DNA of 64,000 nucleotides. It comes from Bdellovibrionales bacterium. Lineage in GTDB: Bacteria > Bdellovibrionota > Bdellovibrionia > Bdellovibrionales > UBA1609. This document shows, one piece after another, positions 34,153 to 50,733 of this stretch. Where the stretch lies: NCBI GenBank assembly GCA_965226095.1, contig OZ245336.1, forward strand, positions 1,481,308 through 1,545,307. The letters are read 5' to 3'. Position numbers and translations under genes: made by a program. Numbering within the stretch: the first letter of the stretch is position 1; every line of letters starts with the position of its first letter. The notes under the pieces were generated by a model. That model was not told where the DNA came from. It was given only the letters and a program-made list of their open reading frames with translations, and did not search any database.

Positions 34153-34167
34153 GCTATTCCTATATAA

Positions 34168-34191
34168 CTGAAAGCTCTCTAAGAGCTTCAG
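34168..34191 (+). terminator. possible stem-loop downstream of purD
   Basis: ctgaaAgctct-cta-agagcttcag forms a 10-bp stem with one bulge and a 3-nt loop, 16 nt after the purD stop. There is no T-tract, so this is weak. Confidence 0.25.
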
Positions 34192-34289
34192 TCCCTTGAA
34201 AGCAGGAATCCAGTCAAACCCGTCATTCCGGCCTTGAGCCGGAATCCAGAAAACAAATTTCGTCATTCCGGCCTTGAGCCGGAATCCAG
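34191..34289 (+). repeat. REP/NIME-like hairpin repeat block (3 units)
   Basis: One variant unit (cttgaaagcaggaatccag) plus two exact copies of cgtcattccggccttgagccggaatccag, with 8-bp arms ATTCCGGC/GCCGGAAT. Lies between the purD stop and the 3' end of OMP paralogue 1. Confidence 0.95.
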
Positions 34290-34319
34290 TCAGCTTCTCA
34301 ACTTTACATTACTCTTGGC

Positions 34320-34925
34320 TTAAAAATAGTATCTGCCTTTTACTTCAAAGAAAGGCATTGGAACAAGAAGGAAAAGTGTCTTTCCTCCTGCATCATTATC
34401 ATAAAGTAAACTATCTAAAGCTATAGAAGGAGCTAAAGAAGCAACTTTTATTTCAATGGCAATTTCAAATGAATCGTTTATATTAAAATTTCCAAAAACT
34501 CCAAGAAAACTAACTAACATAAGACTCCAATCATCTTTTGGAAAAAACAAATAAGGAACGATGGGTGATACATTTAATCCAAAAGAAAATAAACTATCTC
34601 TCATAAATTCATATCCATACTCAAGATTTAATTTCCCCATCAATGGAGCTTCAAGCAAAACTTCACTAAATGCAGAAGTACCGACATTTATATCTGCAAG
34701 AACATAACCAAAATAATTTGTTGAATCTAAAGTATGTTTGTACCCCAAACCAACACTTATAGAAACACCCGGTTTACTAGAAAGATTCAGTTCTTGAAAT
34801 AATCCAAATGTTGTCAGTTCAACAAAAGTGTTTTTCTGATTTGCACCTGCATACGAAACAGACACACAGAAACAACTTAATAAAATTAAGTGCTTCATAA
34901 CTCGTAAAACATTTTTCAAGTTCAT
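34320..34925 (-). CDS. small outer-membrane beta-barrel protein, paralogue 1 of 4
   Basis: True start taken at the ATG at 34925 (MNLKNVLRVMKHLILLSCFCVSVSYA, a signal peptide). The ORF-track TTG at 34988 is the -35 hexamer. Ends ...FFEVKGRYYF (terminal aromatic, OMP signature). Confidence 0.7.
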   Translation of the reverse strand: MNLKNVLRVMKHLILLSCFCVSVSYAGANQKNTFVELTTFGLFQELNLSSKPGVSISVGLGYKHTLDSTNYFGYVLADINVGTSAFSEVLLEAPLMGKLNLEYGYEFMRDSLFSFGLNVSPIVPYLFFPKDDWSLMLVSFLGVFGNFNINDSFEIAIEIKVASLAPSIALDSLLYDNDAGGKTLFLLVPMPFFEVKGRYYF

Positions 34926-35000
34926 AATAATCTTCTTTTCTATAAAGTTTACAACTGTCATGTTATTTTTATAGCTTAAAATTGTCAAAATAAATTAAAT

Positions 35001-35147
35001 AACACATACAGCTGCCGGCGCGAAAGTAGTTTCAGATATTTGCCGTCATCCCTGTACTGCCGTCATTCCGGCCTTGAGCCGGAATCCAGAAAACAAATCT
35101 CGTCATCCCTGCATCCACCGTCATTCCGGCCTTGAGCCGGAATCCAG
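35001..35147 (+). repeat. composite repeat: GC-rich palindromic module + TTCAGATATTTGC module + 2 hairpin units
   Basis: aacacatacagctgccggcgcgaaagta / ttcagatatttgccgtcatccc / 2x gtcattccggccttgagccggaatccag. Confidence 0.95.
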
Positions 35148-35177
35148 TCAACTTTTTAACGTTACATTACTCTTGGC

Positions 35178-35783
35178 TTAAAAATAGTATCTGCCTTTTA
35201 CTTCAAAGAAAGGTCTTGGCTTAAATGGACTCAACAAAGGTATCTCATCAGAGCGACTGAAAATGTAATAATCTAAGGCTTGAAAAACAGCTTTTACTTC
35301 AATGGCAACTTCAAATGAATCGTTTATATTAAAATTTCCAAAAATTCCAAGAGAACTTGCTAAATTAACGTTCCATTCTTTATCGCTTTGATTTTCGTAT
35401 TTAATAAGTGAAACAAGAGGAAAGACAGGTGATACATTTAACCCAAAAGAAAATAAACTGTCTCTCATAAATTCATATCCATACTCAAGATTTAATTTTC
35501 CGGCAAGTATGTAGTGCTCATCAGAAACGAGTCCACCAGTAAATACAGATGTACCAATATTTACATCTGCCAAAACATAACCAAAATAGTTATTGGAATC
35601 TAACTCATACTTGTATCCCAAACCTCCACCTACAACAAAAACCACATCAAATGATACTACTTCGCTTGTTGTTAGCTCAACAAAAGTATTTTTCTTATTT
35701 ACACCTGCATACGAAACAGATACAAAAAAACAACTTAATAAAATTAAGTGCTTCATAACTCGTAAAACATTTTTAAAGCTCAT
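35178..35783 (-). CDS. small outer-membrane beta-barrel protein, paralogue 2 of 4
   Basis: ATG at 35783 lies 6 nt after AAGGAG. Signal peptide MSFKNVLRVMKHLILLSCFFVSVSYA. Conserved blocks GLGYKYELD..NYFGYVLAD, GKLNLEYGYEFMRDSLFSFGLNVSP, FGNFNINDSFEVAIEVKA, FFEVKGRYYF. Confidence 0.75.
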   Translation of the reverse strand: MSFKNVLRVMKHLILLSCFFVSVSYAGVNKKNTFVELTTSEVVSFDVVFVVGGGLGYKYELDSNNYFGYVLADVNIGTSVFTGGLVSDEHYILAGKLNLEYGYEFMRDSLFSFGLNVSPVFPLVSLIKYENQSDKEWNVNLASSLGIFGNFNINDSFEVAIEVKAVFQALDYYIFSRSDEIPLLSPFKPRPFFEVKGRYYF

Positions 35784-35817
35784 AATAATCTCCTTTTTTA
35801 TAAAGTTTACAACTGTC

Positions 35818-35846
35818 ATCTTATTTGTATAGTTTAAAATTGTCAA
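35818..35846 (-). promoter_or_regulatory. sigma-70-type promoter of OMP paralogue 2 (TTGACA-N17-TAAGAT)
   Basis: The reverse strand reads TTGACAattttaaactatacaaaTAAGAT. The same architecture is conserved upstream of all four paralogues, with -35 hexamers at 34983-34988, 35841-35846, 37831-37836 and 38694-38699. Confidence 0.65.
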
Positions 35847-35926
35847 AATAAATTAAAAAACCAGCTAATAACACACCCAGCTGCCGGCATGAAAGTGACT
35901 ACTTCCATAAAACTAACATTTTGGAT

Positions 35927-35982
35927 ACCTATCCAAAATATTAGCTAATATTTTTGACACCTATCCAAAATATTAGTACTAT
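35927..35982 (+). promoter_or_regulatory. candidate promoter TTGACA-N17-TACTAT embedded in an 18-bp direct repeat
   Basis: acctatccaaaatattag occurs twice (35927-35944 and 35959-35976). The -35 TTGACA is at 35954-35959 and the -10 TACTAT at 35977-35982, 10 nt before the ATPase ATG at 35993. Confidence 0.45.
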
Positions 35983-35992
35983 ACTAGGTACG

Positions 35993-37102
35993 ATGAAAAG
36001 GTATTTAAAACAAGCTATTTTGGAAGACATAAAAAGTAAAATGGTGTTTGTATCCGGTCCAAGGCAAGTGGGAAAAACCACTCTCTGTCTTGATTTAGCT
36101 CCAAAAAAACACCGTTATATGAATTGGGATATTTTAACAGACAGAGAGTTTATTTTAAGACAAAAGTTCCCTGTAGAGAAATTCATTATTTATGATGAAA
36201 TTCATAAATTCACAAAGTGGCGTAATTATCTCAAAGGACTTTATGATAAACATAAACCGCAAAAAAAAATTCTCGTCACAGGAAGTGCCCGTTTGGATTA
36301 TTATAGACATTCCGGTGATTCTTTACAGGGAAGGTATCATCATCATCGTCTCCACCCTTTTACTGTGCGGGAGTTAAATATAAAAAGTCAAAAAGACATT
36401 ATGGATCTTCTGCATTTGGGAGGTTTCCCTGAACCTTTTTTATCCGGTTCTCATAGGCAGGCGAAGCGATGGATGCGGGAATACAGAAGTCGTGTGGTTA
36501 ACGAGGAAATTTCTTCCCTGGAGCTTTCTAAAAATTTATCTCAAATGGAGCTTCTCCTGTTAAAACTTCCTGAAAGGATAGGCAGTCCTTTATCCATCAA
36601 TTCTTTAAGAGAAGATATGGATGTTGCTCATAAAACTCTCTCCAAATGGCTCAATATTTTTGAAAGAATGTACCTGATTTACAGAGTTTCTCCTTTTCAT
36701 TCTAATAAGTTTAGAGCATTAAAAAAAGATCAAAAACATTACCATTACAACTGGGCGGAGGCGATCAATGACGGAGCAAAATTTGAAAACATGATGGCCG
36801 GGCACTTATTAAAATGGGTTCATTTCCAGCAGGATTACAATGGGAAGAACATAGATCTTTGTTATTTTCGGGATGTAGATAAAAGAGAGGTGGATTTTAT
36901 TATAACTGAGAACAAAAGACCAATTCAGGCTATAGAGTGTAAGTGGCAGTCAAAAGAGATTTCACCTTCTTTAAAATATTTTAAGTCAAAATTTTCAAAG
37001 ACGGAATGCATACAGGTTAATATGATTTGTCCAAAAGAATACATCTCGAAAGAAGGAATTAAAAACCTAAGCTGGAACACCTTATTGCACAAGCTGATTT
37101 AA
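35993..37102 (+). CDS. AAA-type ATPase (AAA_14 + DUF4143-like architecture)
   Basis: ATG at 35993 (MKRYLKQAILEDI...). Walker A GPRQVGKTT and Walker B IIYDEIHK. C-terminal EVDFIITE...IECKW resembles the DUF4143 nuclease-like tail. The ORF-track TTG at 35954 coincides with a -35 hexamer. Confidence 0.7.
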   Translation: MKRYLKQAILEDIKSKMVFVSGPRQVGKTTLCLDLAPKKHRYMNWDILTDREFILRQKFPVEKFIIYDEIHKFTKWRNYLKGLYDKHKPQKKILVTGSARLDYYRHSGDSLQGRYHHHRLHPFTVRELNIKSQKDIMDLLHLGGFPEPFLSGSHRQAKRWMREYRSRVVNEEISSLELSKNLSQMELLLLKLPERIGSPLSINSLREDMDVAHKTLSKWLNIFERMYLIYRVSPFHSNKFRALKKDQKHYHYNWAEAINDGAKFENMMAGHLLKWVHFQQDYNGKNIDLCYFRDVDKREVDFIITENKRPIQAIECKWQSKEISPSLKYFKSKFSKTECIQVNMICPKEYISKEGIKNLSWNTLLHKLI

Positions 37103-37110
37103 GGATATTA

Positions 37111-37137
37111 GTCATTCCTGCGGAAGCAGGAATCCAG
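37111..37137 (+). repeat. hairpin repeat unit, variant stem
   Basis: gtcattcctgcggaagcaggaatccag, with arms ATTCCTGC/GCAGGAAT. Lies immediately 3' of OMP paralogue 3. Confidence 0.9.
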
Positions 37138-37179
37138 CCAATTTTTCAATTATCAGATAAACGTTACATTACTCTTGGC

Positions 37180-37773
37180 TTAAAAGTAGTATCTACCTTT
37201 TACTTCAAAACCAGGCTGTGGATAAAATGGACCCAAAATGGAGCTCTTTTTCTCATCAGAGTTGCTAAGAATGTAATAATCTAAAGTCGTAAAAATAGCT
37301 TTTACTTCAATTGCAACTTCAAATGAATCGTTTATATTAAAATTTCCAAAGATTCCAAGAGTACTGTTTAAATTAAGACTCCACTTTCTATCGCTTTGAT
37401 TTTCGTATTTAGTAAATGAAACAACAGGTATAACAGGTGACACATTTAATCCAAAAGAAAATAAACTATCTCTCATAAATTCGTACCCATACTCAAAATT
37501 TAATTCTCCGTATGCGCGACCGAAACCAGTAAGAGCAGCACTAACATTTAAATCTGTTAGAACATAACCAAAGTAGTCTTTTGAACCTAAATCGTATTTA
37601 TACCCTAAACCTCCACCTATATTAAAGTCCATCCCTATAGACGATACCTCTCCTGATGTTGTCAGTTCAACAAAAGTGTTTTTCTTATTTACACCTGCAT
37701 ACGAAACAGATACAAAAAAACAACTTAATACAATTAAGCGTTTCATAACTCGTAAAACATTTTTAAAGCTCAT
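37180..37773 (-). CDS. small outer-membrane beta-barrel protein, paralogue 3 of 4
   Basis: ATG at 37773 after AAGGAG. Same conserved blocks as the other paralogues, with divergent loop segments. Confidence 0.75.
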   Translation of the reverse strand: MSFKNVLRVMKRLIVLSCFFVSVSYAGVNKKNTFVELTTSGEVSSIGMDFNIGGGLGYKYDLGSKDYFGYVLTDLNVSAALTGFGRAYGELNFEYGYEFMRDSLFSFGLNVSPVIPVVSFTKYENQSDRKWSLNLNSTLGIFGNFNINDSFEVAIEVKAIFTTLDYYILSNSDEKKSSILGPFYPQPGFEVKGRYYF

Positions 37774-37866
37774 AATAATCTCCTTTTTTATAAAGTTTAC
37801 AACTGTCATCTTATTTGTATAGTTTAAAATTGTCAAAATAAATTAAGAAGACAACATAATATTAAA

Positions 37867-37981
37867 ATAACACCCAGCTGCCGGCGCGTAAGTAAGTCAT
37901 TCCTGTCACTGTCGTCATGCCTGCGAAGGCAGGCATCCAGAAAAAAAGTTCATCCCTGTGAAAACAGGGACAGGAATCCAG
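37867..37981 (+). repeat. composite repeat: GC-rich palindromic module + 2 variant hairpins
   Basis: aataacacccagctgccggcgcgtaagtaa, then gtcatgcctgcgaaggcaggcatccag (arms ATGCCTGC/GCAGGCAT), then ccctgtgaaaacaggg...ggaatccag. Confidence 0.9.
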
Positions 37982-38024
37982 TCAACTTTTCAATTATCAG
38001 ATAAACGTTTACATTACTCTTGGC

Positions 38025-38636
38025 TTAAAAATAATATCTGCATTTTAGTTCAAAATGAGGTATTGGAAAAAAGTCAGTCCTAACAAATCCTTCTTTTAAA
38101 TTACCAAGTAACATTCTATTTAAAAATCGATAAACAGCTTTTATTTCAATGGCAACTTCAAATGAATCGTTTATATTAAAATTTCCAAACATTCCAAGAG
38201 AACTCGTAAACATAAGATCCCAATCCGTACGGCCTTTACGATTTTCAGAGATAGACAAATCACGACCTTTAAAAATAGACACAGAAGAAATAATGGGTGA
38301 TACATTTAACCCAAAAGAAAATAAACTATCTCTCATAAATTCATATCCATATTCAAGATTTAATTTTCCAGCCAATATAGCTTCCCCACCAGTAAGTGCA
38401 GGAGTACCAATATTTATATCTGCCAAAACATAACCAAAATAGTTGTTAAAATCTAACTCATACTTGTATCCCAAACCTCCACTTATATAAATACCTCCTA
38501 AAAATGATACTATTCCATTTGTTGTCAGTTCAACAAAAGTATTTTTCTTATTTACACCTGCATACGAAACAGATATGCAGAAACAACTTAATACAATTAA
38601 GCGTTTCATAATTTGTAAAATATTTTTAAAGCTCAT
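38025..38636 (-). CDS. small outer-membrane beta-barrel protein, paralogue 4 of 4
   Basis: ATG at 38636 after AAGGAG. Signal peptide MSFKNILQIMKRLIVLSCFCISVSYA. Ends HFELKCRYYF. Confidence 0.75.
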   Translation of the reverse strand: MSFKNILQIMKRLIVLSCFCISVSYAGVNKKNTFVELTTNGIVSFLGGIYISGGLGYKYELDFNNYFGYVLADINIGTPALTGGEAILAGKLNLEYGYEFMRDSLFSFGLNVSPIISSVSIFKGRDLSISENRKGRTDWDLMFTSSLGMFGNFNINDSFEVAIEIKAVYRFLNRMLLGNLKEGFVRTDFFPIPHFELKCRYYF

Positions 38637-38728
38637 AATAATCTCCTTTTTTACAAAATTTATAACTGTCATGTTATTTATATAGCTAAAAAATGTCAAA
38701 ATAAATCAAATAACCAGCATAGTATGAA

Positions 38729-38782
38729 ATAACACACCCAGCTGCCGGCAGGTAAGTAACTTCAGGTATTTGCTGTCACTCC
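38729..38782 (+). repeat. GC-rich palindromic module + TTCAGGTATTTGC module
   Basis: ataacacacccagctgccggcaggtaagtaacttcaggtatttgctgtcactcc. Confidence 0.9.
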
Positions 38783-38791
38783 TTTAAGGGT

Positions 38792-38980
38792 TCAATTATC
38801 CTTAGAAAAGTCTTCTGCTTCATATTTTTGAAGGATGTGGTGACAACGATTTTTTATAGATAAAAACAACTCTCCTTTAAGAGAAAAATCTGCTTTTGTA
38901 ATTAAATCACATCGACTATCTGCACTCATTTTTTTTAGATGCCTCTTTACATCCTGCACACTTCTTTGAGGATTAAACAC
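38792..38980 (-). CDS. small ORF; likely the 3' remnant of a 109-codon gene split by the HAD insertion
   Basis: 62 aa. Codons 11-15 (VKRHL) are encoded by the 17-bp repeat that also occurs in ORF 39681..39914, in the same codon phase. Confidence 0.35.
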   Translation of the reverse strand: MFNPQRSVQDVKRHLKKMSADSRCDLITKADFSLKGELFLSIKNRCHHILQKYEAEDFSKDN

Positions 38981-39705
38981 TACACTACAATACCATATCC
39001 ACCATAAGTCCTTGTCAATGACAGTGCTGGTATGTCTGTCGGACCATCTCCTATATAAATAAAGTTACTAAATGGACTCCAAAATTCGCCCCGTTGCACC
39101 TTATCATTAACAGCCTGTACCTTAGATTCTTCTGTAAAAACTCCTTTGGATATCTCATATAAAGCTCTTGTTTTCATTGTTTGATCCATACAAAAAACAG
39201 GAATACTCTCTACATCATCTTTCTTTCCCGGCGGATACACACAGCTATATCGACAACCCCAGATATTTGAAAATATTTCTTTAGGTACTAAAGATTCCAC
39301 ATACTCCTTTAAACCAGCTGTAATAATAAACTGATGAATTTTTATATTACTGTTTTTAAATTTGATTTCTTCTTCAATTTTTTTAATTTTTCCCAACAAA
39401 CTTTCAACTCCTGAATATAATTTCACCAATTCAGTGACTTCTTCATGAGAAAAAAATTCTTTTGTTAATGGTTTCTTCCCATGAAAAGCTATTCGTGATA
39501 AAACATACATCCATGTAGGCGCATCAGATGAAAGCATTCTCTCCCAATCAACTTCAGATTTTGAACCACTCACTGTTTTAATCCACTCCCAAAATTTTTC
39601 TATTTTTTCTGTACCTAAAAAGTACTCAACAATTTCTGATGTAGAATCATCTGGAGTAAGTGTACCGTCAAAATCCCAAACTATAGATATATTTCTGTGA
39701 GGCAT
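38980..39705 (-). CDS. HAD-superfamily hydrolase
   Basis: 241 aa. Motif I VWDFDGTLT (DxDxT) and motif IV IYIGDGPTDIPAL (GDGxxD). Confidence 0.7.
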   Translation of the reverse strand: MPHRNISIVWDFDGTLTPDDSTSEIVEYFLGTEKIEKFWEWIKTVSGSKSEVDWERMLSSDAPTWMYVLSRIAFHGKKPLTKEFFSHEEVTELVKLYSGVESLLGKIKKIEEEIKFKNSNIKIHQFIITAGLKEYVESLVPKEIFSNIWGCRYSCVYPPGKKDDVESIPVFCMDQTMKTRALYEISKGVFTEESKVQAVNDKVQRGEFWSPFSNFIYIGDGPTDIPALSLTRTYGGYGIVV

Positions 39706-39914
39706 GATTGATTATATGTTTCTGCGCTTAGATGCCTCTTTACAGATCTGCTTTTGGTAGCATTGTTGTTAGAAACTAACCGCCCAGTTCGAGAATCCCT
39801 ATGAACAGGCATATCAAGTATACCAAAATTGGACACATCATACCCATGAGAATTAATATGCTTTGTTGGTACTTTAGTTTTAGAAGATGATTTTTTCTTG
39901 CTCATATTTGACAA
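39681..39914 (-). CDS. small ORF; likely the 5' remnant of the gene split by the HAD insertion
   Basis: 77 aa, Ser/Lys-rich. Codons 58-62 (VKRHL) lie on the second copy of the 17-bp repeat. The tail overlaps the HAD start. Confidence 0.35.
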   Translation of the reverse strand: MSNMSKKKSSSKTKVPTKHINSHGYDVSNFGILDMPVHRDSRTGRLVSNNNATKSRSVKRHLSAETYNQSCLTEIYL

Positions 39915-40150
39915 TTACTATACCTAAATATAACTGTTCAAGCAATACATTAATGCTTACAGCAATATAATAAAAAAATTATCTTATCAAGTCTCCACCT
40001 TGGTCTTAAACTCTATATTTTATTCTTACATAATGCACAACTGCTGACACAAAAATCATTTCAGGTATAGGTCACCATTTTGACATAAGATAATTTATAC
40101 GAAATTCGGATCTCGTTCAGATTTCGCACAAACCAAAAATTACACAATCA

Positions 40151-40200
40151 AATAACACACCCAGCTGCCGGCAGGTAAGTAAACCTAGATATTTACTGCT
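40151..40200 (+). repeat. GC-rich palindromic module + (C)TAGATATTTAC module, overlapping the 3' end of the next gene
   Basis: aataacacacccagctgccggcaggtaagtaaacctagatatttactgct. The last 6 codons and the stop of ORF 40185..42197 are supplied by the repeat. Confidence 0.9.
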
Positions 40201-42197
40201 ACACCTATTCCCAGTTCAGTGTTTAACATATCACGCCAGGCTTCGTAAATCATAACCATTGCAAGAGTGTCCAGTTCACAATACTTAAGTAAGGCAGACT
40301 CAAGTTCTTTTTTCTCATACTCGCTTATTTCACTAAATTGCATCCTTCCATAAGCAGTTAAAGCTGCTCCACCATTGGATAATTCATCTTCTTCTGATAA
40401 CAGACTCATATTCTTATCCGACACATCCTGAAACATTTTAGGTAGCCGTTTATAGGGTTCAACAATACTCCCTTCTTTCCATTCAATCCATTTCCAATCC
40501 TTAAAGTTCAAGCTTTTTATACCTTCTGAAGAACCATAAATAGGCTTGCTGTATTTCTCTTGCAAAAATTTTGAGGAGTTTAACACAGCAGGAAGGACTT
40601 GCTTAATAGAATTTGATCCTTTGGTATAAGGAGCATAGAAAAACCTTTTTACCAATTCGTACATATCCACCATACACCTATCACCTTCCCATTTTTCAGA
40701 ATTTGACCGGTTGGATTTTGTAATAGATTTTATAAATTCACAAAGAACCTTTCTGTCTGGAATATTGTTTTGGTCTTCTAACAACTGACGATAAATTTTA
40801 TTTAAATAGGTATTCTCATGACTTGCATATCTAAATATAGTGCCCTTATCTTTTTCAAGCTCACTCTTTAATTGTCTTACAAACTCATAGTTAGGAAAAA
40901 CACCTTGTTTTGTATTTAAAAATTGTCCGGCATGTTCTATTGTTCCGTCTTCATAGACTACATGGTGAGAAAACTGAAAGGCTACTCCCTCGTAAGGCTT
41001 ACGGCCTTTATTAAAAGGAAAAGCAACAGAGCTTGTTTCAAAGTCAATAAAATGTAATGGGAATATCCATTTGTCCATTTCGTTTTTCATTCCTTGAACA
41101 TCCAGGAAAGGTTTTATTTCTCCTCTCTGGGCCATTTTAACCTGAAGCCATTGTCTCTCACTAGAAGACATACCTGATTTTTTATCTTCTTTAGGACACA
41201 CATCTTCTTCAACCAAACTGGATAATTTGACTTTCCCATTTTGTATCAATTTATCTTTTTTTCTAAAACCACAAATGCTCAAAACATTTTCATCTTCAAA
41301 ATCTTTATCAGACCAATTTAGCTGTGAAGACCAACATTCTTTAAAACCACTTTTAAAACCAGTTTGTTCTTCTTCCTTTGAACAGGTAAATTCACACTCT
41401 GCACACTTTGAACCAATATCTGAAACAATCTTCTCGTCCTTTTCGTATTTCTCAGCTAAAAATGAAACTTCATCAAAAAAGTTTCTATTTCTTTGTTCTG
41501 CTGAATCGTTGCCGTCATAAATCAGTTGAATTTCCTTATCCACAGGAACTTGCACTAAAATTTTCTTATCTAAACATTCTTTAGGTAGAGTATTAGAGAC
41601 CTTAATACCTTTTCTGTTATTTTCATCTCTAATAATTTTAAATTTCTGATTTAAACCTTCAACAGGGCATTTTGCGTTCTTATCTACCAGCATTAAATAG
41701 GATGTAACTGAAGCTTCGGGATAAGCACTTGTCAGAACATATTTTTGAAAAGCTATATCGTATAAGTAGGACTTCCAACTTGATTTTATTGTTGTTCCTT
41801 TTTTACTTAAAAATGGTCTTTCTTTATTCCCATCAAATGACTTGGATTTGACTTCAATAAGTTGAAACTGATTACCTTTTTTAATTAAAACATCAATTCT
41901 TATAAAAAGATTTTTAAATTTGATAGCTGGCTCATAAATAATAACTTCATCTTGCTTCAATAGCTCTAGTGTTTGAGCCTGCGCTTCCTCATAATCAAGG
42001 GTTGTAATATCATGTCCATTAGGAAAATACAGCTTTGCAAGCTCCCCTACTTGATAACCTCCGTCTGCGAGGGCAGAAAGAAAGGGATCATCTATTTTTT
42101 GATTTGGGTATTCTGACTTCCTTGTGTAATAGAGTTTTGTTGGACATTCCAGACCCAATTTAAAGCGTGATTTTGTTAAATATCTATGATTTTTCAT
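40185..42197 (-). CDS. DUF2779-like protein (N-terminal PD-(D/E)XK/Cas4-like nuclease region plus C-terminal DFET exonuclease-like region)
   Basis: 670 aa. N-terminus YLTKSRFKLGLECPTKLYY...IRIDVLIKKGNQFQLIEVKSKS. C-terminal FPLHFIDFETSSVAFPFNKGRKPYEGVAFQFSHHV matches my recollection of the DUF2779 hallmark. Confidence 0.6.
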   Translation of the reverse strand: MKNHRYLTKSRFKLGLECPTKLYYTRKSEYPNQKIDDPFLSALADGGYQVGELAKLYFPNGHDITTLDYEEAQAQTLELLKQDEVIIYEPAIKFKNLFIRIDVLIKKGNQFQLIEVKSKSFDGNKERPFLSKKGTTIKSSWKSYLYDIAFQKYVLTSAYPEASVTSYLMLVDKNAKCPVEGLNQKFKIIRDENNRKGIKVSNTLPKECLDKKILVQVPVDKEIQLIYDGNDSAEQRNRNFFDEVSFLAEKYEKDEKIVSDIGSKCAECEFTCSKEEEQTGFKSGFKECWSSQLNWSDKDFEDENVLSICGFRKKDKLIQNGKVKLSSLVEEDVCPKEDKKSGMSSSERQWLQVKMAQRGEIKPFLDVQGMKNEMDKWIFPLHFIDFETSSVAFPFNKGRKPYEGVAFQFSHHVVYEDGTIEHAGQFLNTKQGVFPNYEFVRQLKSELEKDKGTIFRYASHENTYLNKIYRQLLEDQNNIPDRKVLCEFIKSITKSNRSNSEKWEGDRCMVDMYELVKRFFYAPYTKGSNSIKQVLPAVLNSSKFLQEKYSKPIYGSSEGIKSLNFKDWKWIEWKEGSIVEPYKRLPKMFQDVSDKNMSLLSEEDELSNGGAALTAYGRMQFSEISEYEKKELESALLKYCELDTLAMVMIYEAWRDMLNTELGIGVAVNI

Positions 42198-42237
42198 TTT
42201 AAGGTATCATATCGGATAATTTTGATAAAACTTGAAT

Positions 42238-42353
42238 TTCAGATATTTACAGTCATTCTTGTCACTGCCGTCATTCCGGCCTTGAGCCGGAATCCAGAAA
42301 ACAAATTGTCATTTCTACATCCACCGTCATTCCGGCCTTGATCCGGAATCCAG
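42238..42353 (+). repeat. TTCAGATATTTAC module + 2 hairpin units
   Basis: ttcagatatttacagtcattcttgtcactgcc, gtcattccggccttgagccggaatccag, and a second unit with one arm mismatch (ccttgatccgg). Confidence 0.95.
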
Positions 42354-42490
42354 TCAACTTCTCAATTTATTAATAGCTATTTTAAATCTTATTTGTTCTA
42401 AAATTACCATAGTCTAGTTTAAGCAGTGTTTTTATATATTATTTAGTATAAACCCTTAAGTTGATTTCAAAATAGCCGATAAATTCAATT

Positions 42491-43259
42491 ATGGAAGCAA
42501 CTAAAGAGATTCTTCTTGCTCATCATCGGAGCAAAAAGAGAATCCTTACTTTGGGGAAGTTTTCACCCCTGAGAAATATGTCAATCAAATGTTGGATATG
42601 TTGGACAAGTTGTTTGGATAGATACCAATACTGTTTTTTTTGAGCCAACATGTGGGCACGGAAATTTCGTTGAAGCTATTGTTGAAAGACGGATACACGC
42701 TTTCTTGAGAAAAGCAAAAAGACAAAAGATTAAAAATCCTCATTTCTATACTGTAGCAAATACTTTAAACAATCTATGGGCTATAGATATTGATTCAAAA
42801 AATATAGAGTTTTGCCGAAATAGAGTGAGAACTCTCATTTTCAATTTCCTATTTATCTTTTGAACATGAGAGAAATATTCTATCATCAGCAGATTTTATA
42901 AGAACTAATGAAGATTTTTTAACTCACGTTTTATGCTGTATTGAATGGCAGATACATGAAAACGAAACACTTTCATGTTTGGAGGCAAATGTTCTTAAAG
43001 CCAAAGAGATAGTAAATAGAACGACTGTCAGCAAAAAATGGTTAAAAAAAAATAAACATCGACCCTAAATTTTGAAATGAATTGGTGCCAGTATTTTAAA
43101 GGCTATAAAAGAGAAAACATTATTCCAGATGAATATACAAAGAATTTTAGAGTTATCAATTCATTAGTAAATAGCAAAAAAAAGTATCATAGAAAGAAAG
43201 AAATCTTAGAGACCTTTCCCATGCCAGACTTTAATATCGAAATACCAACAGTCGCTTAA
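42491..43259 (+). pseudogene. remnant of an N6-adenine DNA methyltransferase-like gene (multiple frameshifts/stops)
   Basis: No ORF of 60 aa or more covers 42491-43076. Across two frames one reads YFGEVFTPEKYVNQMLDMLDK and DTNTVFFEPTCGHGNFVEAIVER...LWAIDIDSKNIEFCRNRV, an AdoMet-binding motif I context. No NPPY motif was found, so the extent is uncertain. Confidence 0.45.
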
Positions 43260-43277
43260 AAAAATATAGGAGATTTT

Positions 43278-44718
43278 ATGTCAGCCCAATTAAAACTTAC
43301 TAATGTCAATACCCATGTTGTGGATATTTTGGGCAGTGTTAAAGGACGAGATCAGCCCGTGATGAAAATGGATAAGGCTGTAGAATTAGTCAAATGTTTA
43401 GATGAAGAGTTCTTTATAAATGATGATTATGTATTCTTTGATCCTTTTTTAAAGCTGGAGAAATTTTATTAGCCACAGCTCTTGTTTCAACACTTCATAA
43501 ATCCCAAAAGAAACTTGTGCTTTTGGATGTAGTTTATAACGAGATATATCAGAGTGATAGATACTTTGCTCTAGCTCCTGATGAAAGACACTACAATCTT
43601 AGTCTTAGAACCTTTTATGGAAATGAATAAATCTCATGATAAAAATTTTACTGAAAATATTAAAAATGGTGGCTATCTGTCAGAAATTGACGGACGGCTA
43701 AATAAAGAAAAATTTAACAAGGAGTTAAAAGCTATGCTGGAATATATCAAAGAAAAAACCAGAAATAAAAAAATTGTTGCTGTTGGAAACCCTCCTTACC
43801 AAGAAGAAGATGAAGGTCACGGAAAAAGTGCCAAACCTGTTTATAATATTTTTATTGAATCTCTAATTGATTCACAGGAAATTAGTAAGTTTTCTTTAGT
43901 TATCCCTGCTCGTTGGTTTTCTGGAGGTAAAGGGTTAGATAATTTTCGTAATAGAATGATAATAAATAAAAAACTTAAAAAAATAACTTACTTTGAAAAT
44001 TCTTCTTTTATTTTTCCAACTGTAGATATTAGAGGCGGAATATTGGGATAAATTTATAGGAGAAACTACTATTGATAACGGAAAAAAAACAAAGAAATGA
44101 TCTTTCTAAATGGGACATTTTGTCCCCCATGTTGAAGCACATTCAATACTTAATAAAGTATTGAATAGGAGTGATACATTTGTTTCTGAAGCAGTGTGGT
44201 CAAGAAAACCTTTTGGTTTGTCCGGCGATTATTTTTTAAAAAATAAAACAGATCACTCTAAATCAGATCAATTTGTTGAATGTTTAAGTGTAGGAAAACA
44301 AATTAATAAAATTCCTAAAGAACTAGTCCTAACAAATAAAAACAAAGTAAATGAGTATCAGATAGCTTTTCCAAGAGCTTCTGGTGGCGGTAAAGGTAGA
44401 AGAGATCAAATTCTCCTACGGCCAAAACATTTTTTTATTTTGGGAAAAGGACAAATCTCAACAGAAACATATAGTGTAGCTCATAGTTTTAAGGATAGAA
44501 AAGAAGCTGAAAACTTTTTATTATTTTTACAAACTTTTGCGAGATTTTTATTAGGACTCAGAAAACCAACACAAGATACGAAAAGAAATACTTTTGCATG
44601 GATTCCACTAATGGATGCTAAAAAGTCTTGGACAGATGAGGAATTGTTTAAACATTTTGGTATCAATAAAGAAGAGCAAAAATATATTATAGAACAAGTA
44701 GAGAAATGGACAGCTTAA
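43278..44718 (+). pseudogene. adenine-specific DNA methyltransferase (NPPY class), disrupted by several frameshifts and stops
   Basis: Good RBS (taggag) before the ATG at 43278. Three ORF pieces (43278-43472, 43581-44051, 44110-44718) plus an alternate-frame stretch (GEILLATALV...). Catalytic VGNPPYQ. C-terminal WTDEELFKHFGINKEEQKYIIEQVEKW is typical of these methylases. Confidence 0.7.
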
Positions 44719-44791
44719 CAAGTTTTTAATATTGAAAACTTGTTATAGCTTCAAAAGGAAAATTTTTGTGAAAAAAAGAATACGCCGGTCA

Positions 44792-45475
44792 ATGATACTT
44801 ACTCAAAAATTAGAAGGTATCTCAAAAAAAATATTTGAAAGATATAAAAAAAAAGTAATCCTATATATTGGAAATAAACCAGGAGTATATGCTCTTTATG
44901 ATGAAAAAGAGTTATACTATGTAGGTCGTGCCTCTGATTTGGCAAAAAGAGTTAATGATCATTTGAAGGATCGACATTCTGCACTTTGGACTCATTTTTC
45001 AGTTTATTTTACTAAAAAAGCACAATATGCAAATGATATAGAAGCTGTAATTATTTCTGTAGCACAACCTAAAGGAAATAAAGAAACACCCAAATTGGGA
45101 AAAGAAAAAAAACTTAAAGATATTCTTAGAAAAGCTATAAAAGAGAGTCACCAAGAAGAATTAAGAGAACTAGGGTTGAGTAGAAAAAAACAAGTTGATT
45201 TAAAGAAAAAGAGAAAAAGGAAAAATAGACCTGTCTTAAAAAATTATTTTAATAAAAACAAACCTTTAATGAAATCTTATAAAGGTAAAATCTATAAGGC
45301 TGTATTGCTGAAGTCAGGTAAAATTAAATATAATAAGAGAGAGTATGATACTCCCACTTCAGCTGCAGAAGCGATTGTAAAAATGCATTTACCAAATTCA
45401 GCTGTTAATGGTTGGTATTTTTGGTTTATTAAAGATTCTGAAAACAATTGGATTAAGTTAAACGAACTGGATTAA
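44792..45475 (+). CDS. GIY-YIG nuclease-domain protein with DUF4357-like C-terminal domain
   Basis: GVYALYDEKELYYVGRASDLAKRVNDH (GIY...YVG...R). C-terminal YDTPTSAAEAIVKMHLPNSAVNGWYFW resembles the SPSxAA...NGW motif of DUF4357. ATG at 44792; the ORF-track TTG is at 44732. Confidence 0.65.
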   Translation: MILTQKLEGISKKIFERYKKKVILYIGNKPGVYALYDEKELYYVGRASDLAKRVNDHLKDRHSALWTHFSVYFTKKAQYANDIEAVIISVAQPKGNKETPKLGKEKKLKDILRKAIKESHQEELRELGLSRKKQVDLKKKRKRKNRPVLKNYFNKNKPLMKSYKGKIYKAVLLKSGKIKYNKREYDTPTSAAEAIVKMHLPNSAVNGWYFWFIKDSENNWIKLNELD

Positions 45476-45489
45476 GAAAGGTAATTAAT

Positions 45490-47894
45490 ATGTCTGAAAA
45501 ATTAGAACTTTATGTTTATACTACAAACACTTGGCAAGAAAAAGGTTTGTTAAAGGTGGGACATTGTTTGAGAGGACGACATGAAGAGCGTATCAATGAA
45601 CAATTTAATGCCAGTAACCCTGATAAACCTAAAATTCTGTGGTTCGTAGAGTTGCCAGAGGGAAAAACAGATAAGCATATTCATCAACAATTAATAGATA
45701 ATGGGATTAAACATAAAGAAGATGGTGCAGGAACAGAATGGTTTTATGCAAATTTAGAGGATGTAAAAACCGCTTATAATCAAATGATTTGTGGGGTTAA
45801 ACGAACAGACCGTTTTCCTTTGAGAAGAGAACAGAAAGAAGCTGTAGATAAAGCTGTTAAATGGTTTAACAAAGACTATTCTTATAAGACAATAGATTCA
45901 GCTACTCATAAAAACAGGTTTTTATTAAATGCTAAAATGAGATTTGGAAAATGTTTTACTGGTATCCATATTGCAAAAGCTATTGAGGCAAAAAAGACCA
46001 TTATTGTTACCTATAAACCAAGAGTTATTGAGGAGTGGATGAATGCTGTCAATAACCATGTAGATTTCAAAGATTGGACAGGAATCAGAGCAAAACAAGG
46101 AGAAAATAGAAATGAACTTTTTCTTAATGAAATAGGTGATTTTCCTGAACATTCAGATTCTTTAGTCTTATGTGTGTCTTTACAGGATTTGGATATTGAT
46201 GATCAGGGAAATGTAAAAGGCCGGCTCAAAAAAGTTTTAGAAACAAAATGGGACTTACTTATTTTTGATGAAGTGCATTTTGGAGGAAGAACGAATAGAT
46301 TTAAGAATATTTTAAAATACTTAGATCCACAATTTCGCCTTGAGCTTTCTGGAACTCCTTTTCGTCTCATTGGAACAGTAGATTTTTGCCCTGAACAGGT
46401 TTTTACCTACAGTTATCTTGATGAACAGAAAAATAAGAAACAAGAGATTCAAAGTGACCCAGAACAAAAACAACTTTTTATTTATAGACAAATGCCAAAT
46501 TTGAATCTTTCTACTATAGAAATTACAGATAAAGATATAAAACATCAAAAAGAAAAATTTATGACAGATGACAGGGACTTTTCTTTAAATGAATTATTTA
46601 AAGCAACTAATTCAGGTTTTATTCATAATGATGCTGTAGATCACTTTTTAGAAAGTCTGTCAAAAAGAGATTATGGGGCTACTGCTTTGAGTGTTTATGG
46701 AAAATTAGGAGAACAGTTAGGTCTTTCAAACAAAAGACATAGTATTTGGTGGTTAAAGTGTTCAGTCTATTAAGCAACTTATAAAAAAGTCTAAAACATC
46801 ATCCTATTTTTTCTCAATATGAAATTATCAATGCGGCTGGTGGAAAAGCTGGTGATGATTTATCTGATGACGATTTATCTGATGAAATTTTTGCAAAAAA
46901 CAAAAAAGATATAATAAACACAATTGAAAAGGTTAATACCAATGAAATTAACAAGATTGGCACAATAACACTTACTTGTAGGAAATTTTTAACAGGTGTT
47001 ACTATTAAACAATGGGATTCCATGTTGATATTAAATGATATTCAATCGGCAGAAAGTTATTTTCAAGCTATTTTTCGGATTCAATCAGCTTGGTTTGATA
47101 GAGAATATAATAAAGTGTTAAAGCCTGTGGGATATGTTTTTGATTTTGCTATTTCTCGTTGTTTACGAACTACTTATAGTTATGCAAATGCTTTGGCTGA
47201 TCAGTTAGATCAACAGGACAGTTCTAAATATCAAGCTTGTAGGAATAGTAATTTAGTGAAGGTAATTGACGGTTTCTGTGACACTTTGAACATCAAACAA
47301 TTTTATGAGGGAAGTTTAAAGAGTGATCCTGTAACTTCTCGGCAAATATTTGAAGCAATAGCCAGTGAAGGTTCTGTAGTTGCTTTAGCCAAAAGAATTA
47401 CCAGTGATGTTTTGGTGTCCTTTCCTTCTCTATCTCTTTTGGAGAGTTATCCACACTTGTTTGAAGCATTAAAAAATGTGAAAGGTTACAGAAGTCAGCA
47501 AGCTGGTAGCCTTGAGGATTTTATTCGAATAGGAGATGAAGCTAAAAGAAAAAAGTTAGAAAAAGATAAATTAGAACCTAATGATGAAAAAACTGCAAAA
47601 GATAATGAAGATTTTGTAGAAAAAGATAAAGATAAAGATAAGAAAAATAAAAAGAAATGGTATGCGACACAAATTAAAAGATTGGCCATTTGTATGGCTG
47701 ATTTTATTTATATGACTTATAAAAGAGAATATAAAATTGATGAAGTTATCGAAACAAAGTATCCAAAATTTTTTAAAACTGTTACAGGTATCAGTAAAGA
47801 TGATTTTTGTGAACTTTGTGAAAAAGGGTTTATACATAAGAGTCACTCAATCGTATTGTTAGAGAGTTTGCCTTCCGAGAAGAAAGCTCTGTAA
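45490..47894 (+). pseudogene. T5orf172/GIY-YIG-like N-terminal domain + DEAD/DEAH-type helicase, interrupted
   Basis: N-terminus LYVYTT...GLLKVGH...GTEWFYANLEDV. Walker A-like AKMRFGKC and DEVH box (LLIFDEVHFGG). Frame 1 stops at 46773. The homologous text continues in frame 3, which has its own TAA at 46782-46784 and is open from 46785 (HHPIFSQYEIINAAGG...QAIFRIQSAW) to 47894. Confidence 0.65.
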
Positions 47895-47982
47895 AACCAG
47901 AAGAATATATTTTTGAGCATATACAACAAATTACGGATAAAAAATCCGCTTAAAATCTTAAAATTATTTAGTTTTTTTAAAT

Positions 47983-48018
47983 GACTGGATTCTTGCTTTC
48001 GCAGAGGTAGGAATCCAG
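47983..48018 (-). repeat. degenerate hairpin repeat unit (reverse orientation)
   Basis: gactggattcttgctttcgcagaggtaggaatccag, with CTGGATTC...GAATCCAG arms. Confidence 0.7.
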
Positions 48019-48045
48019 AAAACTAAAACCTATTATTTATATGTT

Positions 48046-49251
48046 CTATTTTCGTAAGTAATAACTCCACTTCCCTCTGACTTTATTATGTTTAGAAAAT
48101 ATAAATTGATTGTGATTAGCACACAACAGTCTTAAGTTATCAGGCTCACTTGTGCCACCTAACGAAAAAGGTTTAATGTGATCTATTTGCAACAAGTGAT
48201 TGGATGAACATCTTCTTTTTGTCTTTGGACAAATATAAGTACACTGCCCCTGATCTCTCATCCACACATGATGTCTCACTACTGAAGGAATATATCTTGT
48301 GTATTTTGAATGTTTTTTTGTTGTTTGTTCTAAAGAAGCTTTTTTGAATGTGCTTTTACTTTGTTTATTTAATTTTCGTTTAGGATCATATTTGTCTAAA
48401 CCCAGTTCTGCTAGTAGTGTGAATAACTCTCCATAGGACATATTGGGATTTTTATGTGATAAGAGCTTTTTTAAATCTTCCAGGTTTTGCTGACAATTTT
48501 TGTCCAAAATTACTTTTATCTCTACTTTATCATTATTTATATCTCTAACTTTTTCTTTTGAAATGGGAATTTCAGGATCTATCTCAAAAAGTGTCTTTTC
48601 CAACTCACGACTGGACTGACCTTCCGCTTTTTGTATTAAATCCAGTTTTTGAGTAGAATTTAACTCCAAAGTGGTTTTATTTTTTTGCTTATCCTCTAAT
48701 TTGTTCTCTTCTTTTTTGCCTTCATCCGCATTGTTATTAACGCACCCAGCTGCCGGCAGGTAAGTAGACTTAGAATCACACCCCTTTAAATTGCTTTCTT
48801 TAAGTGTTTTATCCTTCCTTCTCTTTTTCTCAAAAAAAGTTTGTAATTGAGAAGCTGTAGTTAAGTTTAAACTTCCACTTTTTATCTTTGGTGTGGCTTG
48901 TGGGATATCACGGCATAATCTCATAGCTTTAATTCTCCTATAAGCAGCACTGTGACTATAATCCAATTCCTTAATGGCATATTCAAATAGGCTAGGAAAA
49001 CCTCTTTTAAGATAGAGCTTTCTACTTTCTATTTCCTGTAAGTGTTGCAGCACTTGGATATTGATTTGTCTTTCTTTTTGAACCAGATTTTTTTGTGAAA
49101 GCAATTGGTCATTGCTGAGTTTTTTTAAATTTGTATTTATTTTTATTTCTGTACTTGTATTGACTGGATTCCTGTCCCTGTTTTCACAGGGATAAACTTT
49201 TTTTTCGCAGGAATGACGACGTATATTTTGTTTTTCCTGTTGTATGTACAT
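48046..49251 (-). CDS. HNH endonuclease (DUF222-like N-terminal region) carrying repeat-element insertions
   Basis: C-terminal HNH motif: QCTYICPKTKRRCSSNHLLQIDHIKPFSLGGTSEPDNLRLLCANHNQF. N-terminal LQEIESRKLYLKRGFPSLFEYAIKELDYSHSAAYRRIKAMRL. Codons 10-32 and the STYLPAAGCV segment are encoded by repeat modules. Confidence 0.75.
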   Translation of the reverse strand: MYIQQEKQNIRRHSCEKKVYPCENRDRNPVNTSTEIKINTNLKKLSNDQLLSQKNLVQKERQINIQVLQHLQEIESRKLYLKRGFPSLFEYAIKELDYSHSAAYRRIKAMRLCRDIPQATPKIKSGSLNLTTASQLQTFFEKKRRKDKTLKESNLKGCDSKSTYLPAAGCVNNNADEGKKEENKLEDKQKNKTTLELNSTQKLDLIQKAEGQSSRELEKTLFEIDPEIPISKEKVRDINNDKVEIKVILDKNCQQNLEDLKKLLSHKNPNMSYGELFTLLAELGLDKYDPKRKLNKQSKSTFKKASLEQTTKKHSKYTRYIPSVVRHHVWMRDQGQCTYICPKTKRRCSSNHLLQIDHIKPFSLGGTSEPDNLRLLCANHNQFIFSKHNKVRGKWSYYLRK

Positions 49252-49450
49252 AAAAAATACCTCCTATGTTGTTACTGTTACCTTTATAAGGGAAAAACAA
49301 TATAACATGGGTTTTTAAAAGAGATTTTTATAAGGGTGGAGCTTAGTTATAGCTTCAAGCTTTAAGGCACCTGATAGCTTCATAAATAGGTTGTTTTACT
49401 CTTAAGCTTTAAAAAACATTTAGATGATAGAAAAAAAGCAACCACGATGA

Positions 49451-49515
49451 AATATAAGCATCAAAAATCCTGTCAAGATTTTTTACAATAAGAACAGTGT
49501 GTAAATTAAATATAC
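49451..49515 (+). promoter_or_regulatory. conserved ~65-bp upstream element with near-palindrome AAAAATCCTGTCAAGATTTTT (copy A)
   Basis: aatataagcatcaaaaatcctgtcaagattttttacaataagaacagtgtgtaaattaaatata. A second copy is found at 50207-50271. Lies about 110 bp upstream of ORF 49623. Confidence 0.5.
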
Positions 49516-49622
49516 TAATTTTAATTTTTTTCATACATTAGTCTAAATTTTTACACATTTTTTCAGAGTTTTTTTAATATAACCCTTTAGATTGAAACTA
49601 AGTAGGCCGATAAAGTTATGTC

Positions 49623-50189
49623 ATGGAGGCAATCGAGAATATTCTGCAATTTATATATTATCGGAGTAAAAAAGAATCCGAAGTTTTAAAGCAGTTTTCA
49701 TTTTTGAAAAATATGTTAGAAATAATAAAAATAATTTTAATATCAATATTACTTGTATTTAGCTTTAATAGCTACTCACTGTTAGCTTTAGATTGTAAAG
49801 ATTTAAAAGGATTAAGTCTTAGAAATGAAAAATTTTCGAAGGACAGCTTTTCTAAGGCTCGTCTACTTATTACATTTTTTAGTAATAACAATAGTATGTT
49901 CTATAATTGGAATCAAAATACAGGAACTTTTGTTGATATGTGGAATAGCATTAAAGGATTTGAAGAATTAAAAGTTGTGCAAAGTAACTCTAATATGGCT
50001 TTAGGGTATTCAGTTAAAAATGGTTTAGAAGGTATAAGGATTCATTTTAAAAAGAAAACAGCTGTATATGCTAAACATGTAGCACCTCTTATTGATGGCT
50101 TTGGGACAGACGGTATTTATAAAATGAAGTGTATTGATGTAACACAAGAGTTACAACAGGTTACAAAAAGTAGCAATAAGGAAAATTAA
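49623..50189 (+). CDS. hypothetical secreted/membrane protein
   Basis: 188 aa. Internal Met followed by a hydrophobic segment (MLEIIKIILISILLVFSFNSYS), so the real start may be downstream. No recognisable domain. Confidence 0.35.
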   Translation: MEAIENILQFIYYRSKKESEVLKQFSFLKNMLEIIKIILISILLVFSFNSYSLLALDCKDLKGLSLRNEKFSKDSFSKARLLITFFSNNNSMFYNWNQNTGTFVDMWNSIKGFEELKVVQSNSNMALGYSVKNGLEGIRIHFKKKTAVYAKHVAPLIDGFGTDGIYKMKCIDVTQELQQVTKSSNKEN

Positions 50190-50206
50190 AAAGAACGAAT
50201 ATAAAA

Positions 50207-50271
50207 AATATAAGCATCAAAAATCTTGTCAAGATTTTTTACTAGTAAAACAATGCGTAAATTAAATGTAT
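50207..50271 (+). promoter_or_regulatory. conserved ~65-bp upstream element with perfect 10-1-10 palindrome AAAAATCTTG-T-CAAGATTTTT (copy B)
   Basis: aatataagcatcaaaaatcttgtcaagattttttactagtaaaacaatgcgtaaattaaatgta. Lies about 55 bp upstream of ORF 50326. Confidence 0.5.
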
Positions 50272-50325
50272 AAATAATTTAAAGTTCTTTAAGATCATGT
50301 CAATATACTTATAAAGAGGTAAGTA

Positions 50326-50733
50326 ATGAAAATATCTGGAAAGATACTAATAACTGTATTGGCATTGATTAGTGTATTTTATTTTTATGTCCAATTTCCA
50401 AAAAGTGCCTTTTATAGCAAAATTTTTTATAGGAAATGTGACTCCCATAAAACTGATCTTGAACTTGAAAAACTTGGAAAACAATTTTCTGTTCTAACTG
50501 AAAACTGGGAAAACAATAAAAACCCTATAAATATAGATCATTATTTTAAAATGAAAGAAGCAGAAAAAGATCTTTTTAGTGCTGAACCATGCTTTGAAAA
50601 GATCAATAAAAAAATTAACAGTTTAGGTATAACAGATATGAAGAATGAAAGTCAGAGAGTAAAATGTTTATTTACAAGGGAACTTATAAAGTGTTATAAA
50701 AAAGCGATTAAAATAATGCAGAGATATTTATAA
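50326..50733 (+). CDS. hypothetical membrane-anchored protein
   Basis: 135 aa. N-terminal TM (ILITVLALISVFYFYV). RBS-like agaggtaag upstream. No recognisable domain. Confidence 0.4.
   Translation: MKISGKILITVLALISVFYFYVQFPKSAFYSKIFYRKCDSHKTDLELEKLGKQFSVLTENWENNKNPINIDHYFKMKEAEKDLFSAEPCFEKINKKINSLGITDMKNESQRVKCLFTRELIKCYKKAIKIMQRYL

Follow-up and report, generated by a model that had tools for sequence, protein, structure and literature searches.

We analysed a 64,000-nt window from a Bdellovibrionales bacterium (GenBank assembly GCA_965226095.1, contig OZ245336.1, positions 1,481,308 to 1,545,307 of the forward strand), in which a short GC-rich repeat recurs among the genes of a variable island between purD and ftsK. 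The genome is a single contig of 1,546,870 bp with 35.4% GC; by EF-Tu, its nearest named relative is a 'MAG: Bdellovibrionales bacterium' (90% identity). On the minus strand, the repeat-bearing part of the island reads: a DUF2779 gene (40185..42197), repeat copy 5 (40150..40205), small open reading frames (ORFs) with an inserted HAD hydrolase gene (38980-39705), copy 4 (38727..38779), a gene for a putative outer-membrane protein (OMP4) and repetitive extragenic palindromic (REP) hairpins; then copy 3 (37864..37896), OMP3, an AAA_14/DUF4143 gene on the other strand, copy 2 (35867..35898), OMP2 and REP hairpins; and finally copy 1 (34997..35049), OMP1, more REP hairpins and purD. Copy 6 (48735..48775) lies inside a gene for an HNH endonuclease (48046..49251, minus strand). 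The four OMP genes (34320..38699, minus strand; individually at about 34320-34925, 35178-35783, 37180-37773 and 38025-38636) encode paralogues of ~200 aa that are 57–73% identical to each other, match no Pfam family and all end in RYYF; they are probably outer-membrane barrels. Each has a promoter-like site of the form TTGACA-17-TAACAT/TAAGAT, the promoter regions of the four cassettes are ~90% identical, and the family is essentially confined to this genome.

Searching the window for the 15-mer core of the repeat, CACCCAGCTGCCGGC, with up to two mismatches gave exactly six matches, at 35005 (2 mismatches), 35874, 37871, 38735, 40158 and 48743, all on the plus strand, against a mean of 0.02 in dinucleotide-preserving shuffles of the window. 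All six places named in the initial annotation of this DNA were therefore confirmed, and the genome-wide search that it had proposed raised the number of copies to nine, with three outside the window at genome positions 691316 (minus), 947781 (plus) and 1199724 (minus). No further copy appeared anywhere in the genome even when a 28-mer was allowed seven mismatches, and the repeat family is therefore small and compact. Eight of the nine copies have the same orientation relative to the local gene, these being the eight whose neighbouring gene fixes an orientation; the copy at 947781 sits between convergent genes. Five of the six solo copies of the genome fall within one 5.2-kb array.

All copies share 33 bp, and a long form reaches 50–60 bp. 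On the strand that carries the neighbouring genes the unit reads (T)TACTT-N4-GCCGGCAGCTGGGTG-YR-TTA(T/A)T, within which GCCGGCAGCTG is invariant in all nine copies; three solo copies, of the long form, carry ~20 additional nt on the 5' side (GACRGCAAATAYCTGAA). Within the window copies 1, 4 and 5 are long and copies 2 and 3 short. Each of the first four lies upstream of the OMP paralogue with the same number: copy 1 has a degenerate core, CATACAGCTGCCGGC, and REP hairpins on its right, copy 2 adjoins the divergent AAA_14/DUF4143 gene, and copy 3 has a 2-nt deletion in its tail and is followed by REP hairpins. Positions 38727-38759 of copy 4 are identical to copy 5 (33/33). Solo copies end in TGTTATTT in this genome and in a sister genome described below, and in CATTATAT in a relative from another genus, while copies within HNH genes have CGTTAA(T) instead; the solo copies therefore propagate as a lineage of their own.

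The repeat had initially been described as a set of nested palindromes, pointing to recognition by a dimeric protein. Two of the palindromes, CAGCTG and GCCGGC, are indeed found in every copy, but the 10-bp palindrome CTGCCGGCAG is intact in just three of the six window copies and five of the nine in the genome. It is broken in the other four because the four bases before GCCGGC vary (ACCT, TCGC, TCAT, ACGC, CCGC) and no compensating change accompanies them. What is conserved is asymmetric and extends beyond the palindromes (GGGTG-YR-TTA), which argues against symmetric recognition. We also considered restriction-site avoidance and dropped it: CAGCTG and GCCGGC are common in the genome (339 and 197 sites) and not under-represented. 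Neither terminal inverted repeats nor a target-site duplication are visible in the aligned copies, and a REP hairpin lies within 100 nt of only two of the nine copies although the genome has ~130 hairpins of this type. The repeat is thus not the rigid end of a hairpin-bearing miniature inverted-repeat transposable element (MITE), the possibility against which the initial annotation had asked its motif to be weighed.

Copy 6 is in frame within its HNH gene, as had been noticed from the start, and is translated as STYLPAAGCVN. Its host is one of ~9–11 copies of a unit of ~1.4 kb (up to ~1.7 kb), which begins sharply 233 nt before the ATG and has a TTGACA promoter of its own. The copies are at genome positions 1107-2568, 565194-566655, 690586-692030, 1032936-1034350, 1041313-1042351, 1198976-1200458, 1399722-1401169 and 1411077-1412529, and at 48046-49484 of the window. 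Two subfamilies can be told apart by the middle third of the gene: the motif occurs in subfamily A only, in frame in three paralogues (copy 6 and both distant minus-strand copies), and all six subfamily-B copies are without it. No other multi-copy nuclease was seen in the genome. The protein has ~400 aa, of which Pfam recognises only the C-terminal HNH domain; likewise in structure comparison only the HNH domain finds relatives, and the N-terminal helical domain matches no known DNA-binding fold. The middle domain (residues ~233–320) gave a weak Pfam match to the catalytic domain of ResT/TelK telomere resolvases (E 0.023, below the cut-off), which is probably spurious. REP hairpins are also translated in frame, near the N-terminus of the HNH protein and in its second linker.

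Homologues of this protein are numerous in ENA assemblies, and many contain the sequence ST[FYA][LA]PAAGCV[KN], with 1–4 units per protein. The same underlying DNA is present in HNH genes of our genome, of RHO3_bin_17 (a metagenome-assembled genome from another genus of the same family), and of five further sequences, L111 and L125–L128. In the other genomes the in-gene motif is sometimes arranged as tandem arrays of 78–97-nt units: RHO3_bin_17 has one or two units of ~78 nt in each of at least three HNH genes, the L111 gene has four tandem units of 96 nt, and L125–L128 have one unit each. Copies also occur outside the genes. A free-standing inverted array of five 97-nt units lies 0.5–1.1 kb upstream of the HNH gene in L111 (at 8900-9500, between REP arrays and outside any intact gene), and in RHO3_bin_17 five copies are found as solo motifs or mini-arrays, three of them inverted and 300–500 nt upstream of an HNH start. 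A CRISPR-like reading of the 96–97-nt arrays was ruled out, as their ‘spacers’ are themselves repeated. The initial annotation had not seen that the motif belongs to the linker of a multi-copy HNH family found across genomes. This linker DNA is the constant home of the repeat, and the HNH gene is a selfish, multi-copy element.

Several properties of the in-gene copies bear on what is being conserved. The codons used by the motif are rare in the genome (CTG 0.11, CCG 0.12, GGG 0.11 and TGC 0.21 of their synonymous sets), and synonymous variation affects 2 of 11 motif columns compared with 128 of 211 elsewhere in the gene. The encoded peptide falls in a predicted disordered linker (residues 153–194, with a predicted local distance difference test score below 50) and is dispensable. 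In another genome, G110, the HNH linker reads SLLLVIGCV at the same position, from DNA that differs from the motif mainly by C-to-T changes; this genome holds no copy of the motif at all, solo or otherwise. Together, the low synonymous variation, the rare codons, the disordered linker and the decay in G110 show that the motif is conserved at the level of DNA rather than peptide, and that this conservation lapses in some lineages. A sliding nucleotide comparison of HNH genes between our genome and RHO3_bin_17 was set aside: the motif was not prominent in it, the linker was unaligned, and conserved domains also reached 19–21 of 21 identities.

The distribution of the repeat is narrow. Among 185,579 species genomes scanned, its 20-mer was found in multiple copies only in RHO3_bin_17; it was absent from the 14 other genomes of the source genus, and two scans of JGI metagenome contigs gave no match. 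Of the 109 genomes in the taxonomic family, 39 contain the HNH gene family itself, so that the motif marks just a sub-clade of it. No genome showed solo copies without also having HNH genes that bear the motif. The repeat is confined to a few Bdellovibrionales that have small genomes and are apparently sponge-associated, and public runs holding the region include sponge metagenomes.

We next describe the sequence on either side of the solo copies. The sister genome is represented by L112, from a 1.70-Mb ENA contig, which shares synteny with the window between ftsK and purD at ~88% identity. Three motif copies are retained there: the one that follows DUF2779 (59/59 nt identical), an orthologue of copy 4 (at position 15668 of L112) and one beside the 3' end of the AAA_14 gene. 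OMP genes are missing; homology ends at the edge of the motif, and past it lie unrelated genes, DUF6338-like and others. At DUF2779, orthologues in two further genomes (G003 and G014, 85% identity) lack the motif and have the native end ...TKLKENKIAG*, while in our genome and the sister genome this C-terminus is replaced, the protein ends ...GIGVAVNI* and homology is lost downstream. These last codons and the stop are supplied by the distal part of the long form of copy 5. The initial annotation had credited the motif with the last codons, which holds for the long form but not for the 15-mer core, as the latter lies 12 nt beyond the stop. Comparison of the four genes shows a breakpoint rather than a clean insertion.

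A junction within the motif was found in a contig of 1,216 nt from run X4, whose sample and organism label differ from those of the source. This contig joins 36935-37163, 38009-38726 and 40150-40418. At the joint from 38726 to 40150, precisely the sequence separating copies 4 and 5 is missing (38760..40149, minus strand, holding the small ORFs and the HAD gene) and one 33-nt copy remains; the 33 letters common to the two sides are the identical 33 nt of the two copies. The other joint removes the OMP3 cassette by way of a 34-nt repeat in the OMP 3' flanks. In run X2, from the source sample, a low-depth joint from 38773 to 40220 falls in the distal part of the repeat. The five direct copies stand, all in one orientation, at the boundaries of cassettes that are present in some sequences and absent from others, and the coincidence of motif copies with breakpoints, which had been suggested for checking, is borne out by the X4 joint, the motif edges of the sister genome and the end of DUF2779. 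Around the distant solo copy (L008), reads show just assembly breaks at the repeat. In RHO3_bin_17, apparent reciprocal recombinants (La-Rb, Lb-Ra) proved to be one- and two-unit mini-arrays with homologous flanks and give no evidence of site-specific exchange. Minor contigs of run X1 fuse OMP paralogues (joints 37736 to 38605 and 35214 to 37297), and the copy number of the OMP array varies within and between populations. At 38935-39744, moreover, an X4 contig joins 38953 to 39748, and the HAD gene is absent from the sister genome.

No enzyme could be linked to these junctions. Every match to tyrosine recombinases (PF00589) is over 30 kb away from the nearest copy and outside the window, serine recombinases were not found, no recombinase gene of any kind lies near a copy, and the Y1/RAYT transposase (PF01797) is absent from both our genome and RHO3_bin_17. 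Since joints fall in the motif, in the OMP 3' flank and in OMP coding sequence, the array is reshaped by exchange at several kinds of repeat, of which the motif is one.

On balance, we take the motif to be the GC-rich core of a lineage-specific dispersed repeat whose copies are probably the places where cassettes recombine, a reading that we hold with modest confidence. The repeat family, its tie to the HNH genes, its conservation as DNA and the junctions at its copies are seen in the sequences themselves, and the mode of exchange is inferred from them. The solo copies, placed in one orientation between the gene cassettes of the purD-ftsK island, would provide movable stretches of identical sequence. 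A cassette between two direct copies would be lost or gained when these undergo exchange, the sequence beyond a copy could be replaced, and differences in the island between strains and species may result. Because the other repeats of the array behave alike, no enzyme is linked to the repeat and copies decay, we favour a passive process, in which the 33-bp patch would be exchanged through ordinary homologous recombination or through gene conversion rather than by a dedicated enzyme. Gene conversion among copies might also keep the repeat GC-rich in an AT-rich genome.

Several points weigh against this account. Only one clean population-level junction falls inside the motif, and it comes from assembler contigs rather than raw reads; the other junctions in the array use the OMP 3' flank and OMP coding sequence. 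The OMP cassettes may have been either inserted in our genome or lost from the sister genome. Decayed copies exist (35005, GCTGTATG; the sister-genome copy at 15668, GGATG; and units of the L111 array), so the constraint on the repeat is not strict. The length of 33 bp is near the lower limit for RecA-dependent exchange, which leaves room for an enzyme-stimulated process. Finally, passive homology alone leaves unexplained why a GC-rich 20-mer made of rare codons should persist across genera.

Alternatively, a sequence-specific enzyme might recognise or cut the motif, the best candidate being the subfamily-A HNH protein that carries it in its own gene, and nicks or breaks at solo copies would then stimulate recombination and drive cassette exchange. 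We regard this as possible but unlikely. It would account for the conservation of the DNA in spite of rare codons and a dispensable disordered linker, for the tandem arrays inside HNH genes and the free inverted arrays and solo copies 0.3–1.1 kb upstream of HNH starts in L111 and RHO3_bin_17, and for the abrupt change of sequence at motif edges. Solo copies, moreover, are limited to our genome, RHO3_bin_17, L112 and L111, and are missing from G110 where the motif has decayed; such co-occurrence, however, would follow just as well from a simple origin of solo copies in HNH linker DNA. Against a target role stand the N-terminal domain with no known DNA-binding fold and the six subfamily-B copies without the motif. 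The ends of the HNH units carry no half-motifs and the motif is intact inside the gene, so the signature of a homing endonuclease (a gene splitting its own target, with empty sites elsewhere) is not seen. The second, low-depth joint in run X2 lies elsewhere in the repeat, as homologous exchange predicts. A fuller version, in which subfamily-A HNH genes would harbour one to several copies of the site they target within their linker DNA and spread solo copies over the chromosome, and nicks or breaks at these would drive the exchange of surface and defence cassettes in sponge symbionts, is a slightly less likely conjecture. Leaving enzymes aside, tandem duplication of a unit made of motif, promoter and OMP gene might have produced the six window copies passively, with the motif itself having neither role nor consequence. 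The clustering of the solo copies in one array, the similarity of the OMP promoter regions and the confinement of the OMP family to this genome fit duplication, but the motif is also found after DUF2779, at 947781, in three HNH genes and in genomes that lack OMP genes, indels have accumulated between motif and -35 hexamer while the core stays intact, and a junction falls inside the motif. Tandem duplication, which we consider improbable, is thus contradicted by copies outside the array and in other genomes, the sister genome without OMP genes being the key case.

Two regulatory roles were weighed as well. The four copies upstream of four similar promoters, in a single orientation and with a core that equals the promoter in conservation, unlike the linker separating the two, could be taken for an operator or activator site through which a transcription factor jointly controls the variable OMP genes. 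The placement upstream of the -35 hexamers had been noted initially and was reproduced here, but the distance from GCCGGC to the hexamer is 25, 36, 43 or 44 nt, a 19-nt spread that puts the copies on different helical faces; five of the nine copies are not near any OMP-type promoter, the sister genome has copies and no OMP genes, the symmetric part of the motif is not conserved, and the same DNA lies within HNH coding sequence in other genera. With neither a fixed spacing or helical phase nor a conserved dyad, a promoter-linked role appears quite improbable. The consensus sequences of sigma-54 and FliA promoters were compared by eye and neither fits. An element acting at the RNA level (a terminator, a processing site or a small-RNA target) would explain the constant orientation relative to the local gene and the frequent position just past a stop codon, and two copies can pair with sequence downstream, followed by a run of T. 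These terminator-like pairings are weak and confined to single copies, and the changes before GCCGGC are uncompensated. Five 61-nt folds, on either strand, were no better than shuffles (z of -0.46 to +1.98), and an Rfam scan of 33000-50500 by E-value gave no match. The folding results agree with the initial view that the motif is not an RNA hairpin, and leave an RNA-level role very improbable indeed.

Among known systems, the nearest analogues are mitochondrial GC clusters and Rickettsia palindromic elements. In yeast and other AT-rich mitochondrial genomes, palindromic GC clusters are 30–45 nt long, dispersed, lineage-specific and involved in exchange through recombination (Wu and Hao 2015; PMC4478555), and in this they resemble our repeat, a short GC-rich island in an AT-rich genome that is likewise dispersed, lineage-specific and linked to exchange. 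The repeat differs in its asymmetric core, its failure to fold, its nine copies, its lack of a target-site duplication and its home in the HNH linker, where GC clusters are true folding palindromes with tens to hundreds of copies and target-site duplications. GC clusters also occur inside coding sequence. Rickettsia palindromic elements insert in frame into genes of reduced genomes without destroying them and are also intergenic (PMC10969869). Like these elements and MITEs, our repeat is found both between genes and in frame within them (three HNH genes here, many homologues, and the DUF2779 tail); unlike them, it has no terminal inverted repeats or target-site duplications. Moreover, the Rickettsia elements are ~150 bp long, palindromic and found in many unrelated genes, whereas the repeat is 33–60 bp, non-palindromic overall and, apart from the DUF2779 tail, coding in one gene family only.

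Other comparisons are looser. With REP sequences and bacterial interspersed mosaic elements the repeat shares its GC-richness, its intergenic position at gene ends and a genome full of REP-type hairpins, but it forms no hairpin, is low in copy number and untied to the REP hairpins, and its genome has no Y1/RAYT. As with integron attC or pdif-type sites, copies in one orientation lie between cassettes and a variant that lacks one cassette keeps one site; there is, however, no integrase or recombinase nearby and no bipartite imperfect inverted repeat, the cassettes have their own promoters, and the exchange seen at the repeat also fits simple homologous recombination. The REP13E12 family of Mycobacterium tuberculosis consists of multi-copy DUF222-HNH genes that contain the attB site of phiRv1. 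It offers a parallel in its repeated HNH genes with a short recombination site in the body, but Pfam DUF222 does not match our HNH protein and no phage integrase is linked to it. DNA uptake and Chi-type oligomers come in hundreds of copies with a strand bias, in contrast to the nine copies of the repeat, and a Chi-like or uptake word, GCTGGGTG, occurs 7+11 times against ~5 expected per strand and is not enriched beyond the motif copies. A dif/Xer site was likewise dropped: no E. coli-type dif was found at up to seven mismatches, and a resemblance to the XerC arm, judged by eye, covers 7 of 11 positions. The E. coli Chi octamer itself, GCTGGTGG, occurs 40+32 times in the genome against ~5 expected per strand.

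Small host-associated genomes are usually seen as static, but here strains differ, exactly where a 33-bp repeat has its copies, in an island that encodes putative surface proteins along with accessory genes and a restriction-like module. It is also unusual for a GC-rich word to be kept across genera in the disordered linker of a nuclease, through rare codons and with a dispensable peptide. If an enzyme does act on the repeat, this would be a new kind of cassette-exchange system, consisting of a nuclease and its site with no integrase; if none does, the repeat would be a clean bacterial counterpart of the GC clusters of mitochondria, useful for tracing rearrangements among strains of these symbionts. 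The restriction-like module (42312-48038) comprises an Eco57I-type methylase fragment, a GIY-YIG/RAMA protein and a ResIII helicase. Its word depth is ~4.7 in runs X1 and X2 compared with ~23–25 for the flanking DUF2779 and HNH genes, and it therefore seems to be present in only about one fifth of the population of the source sample.

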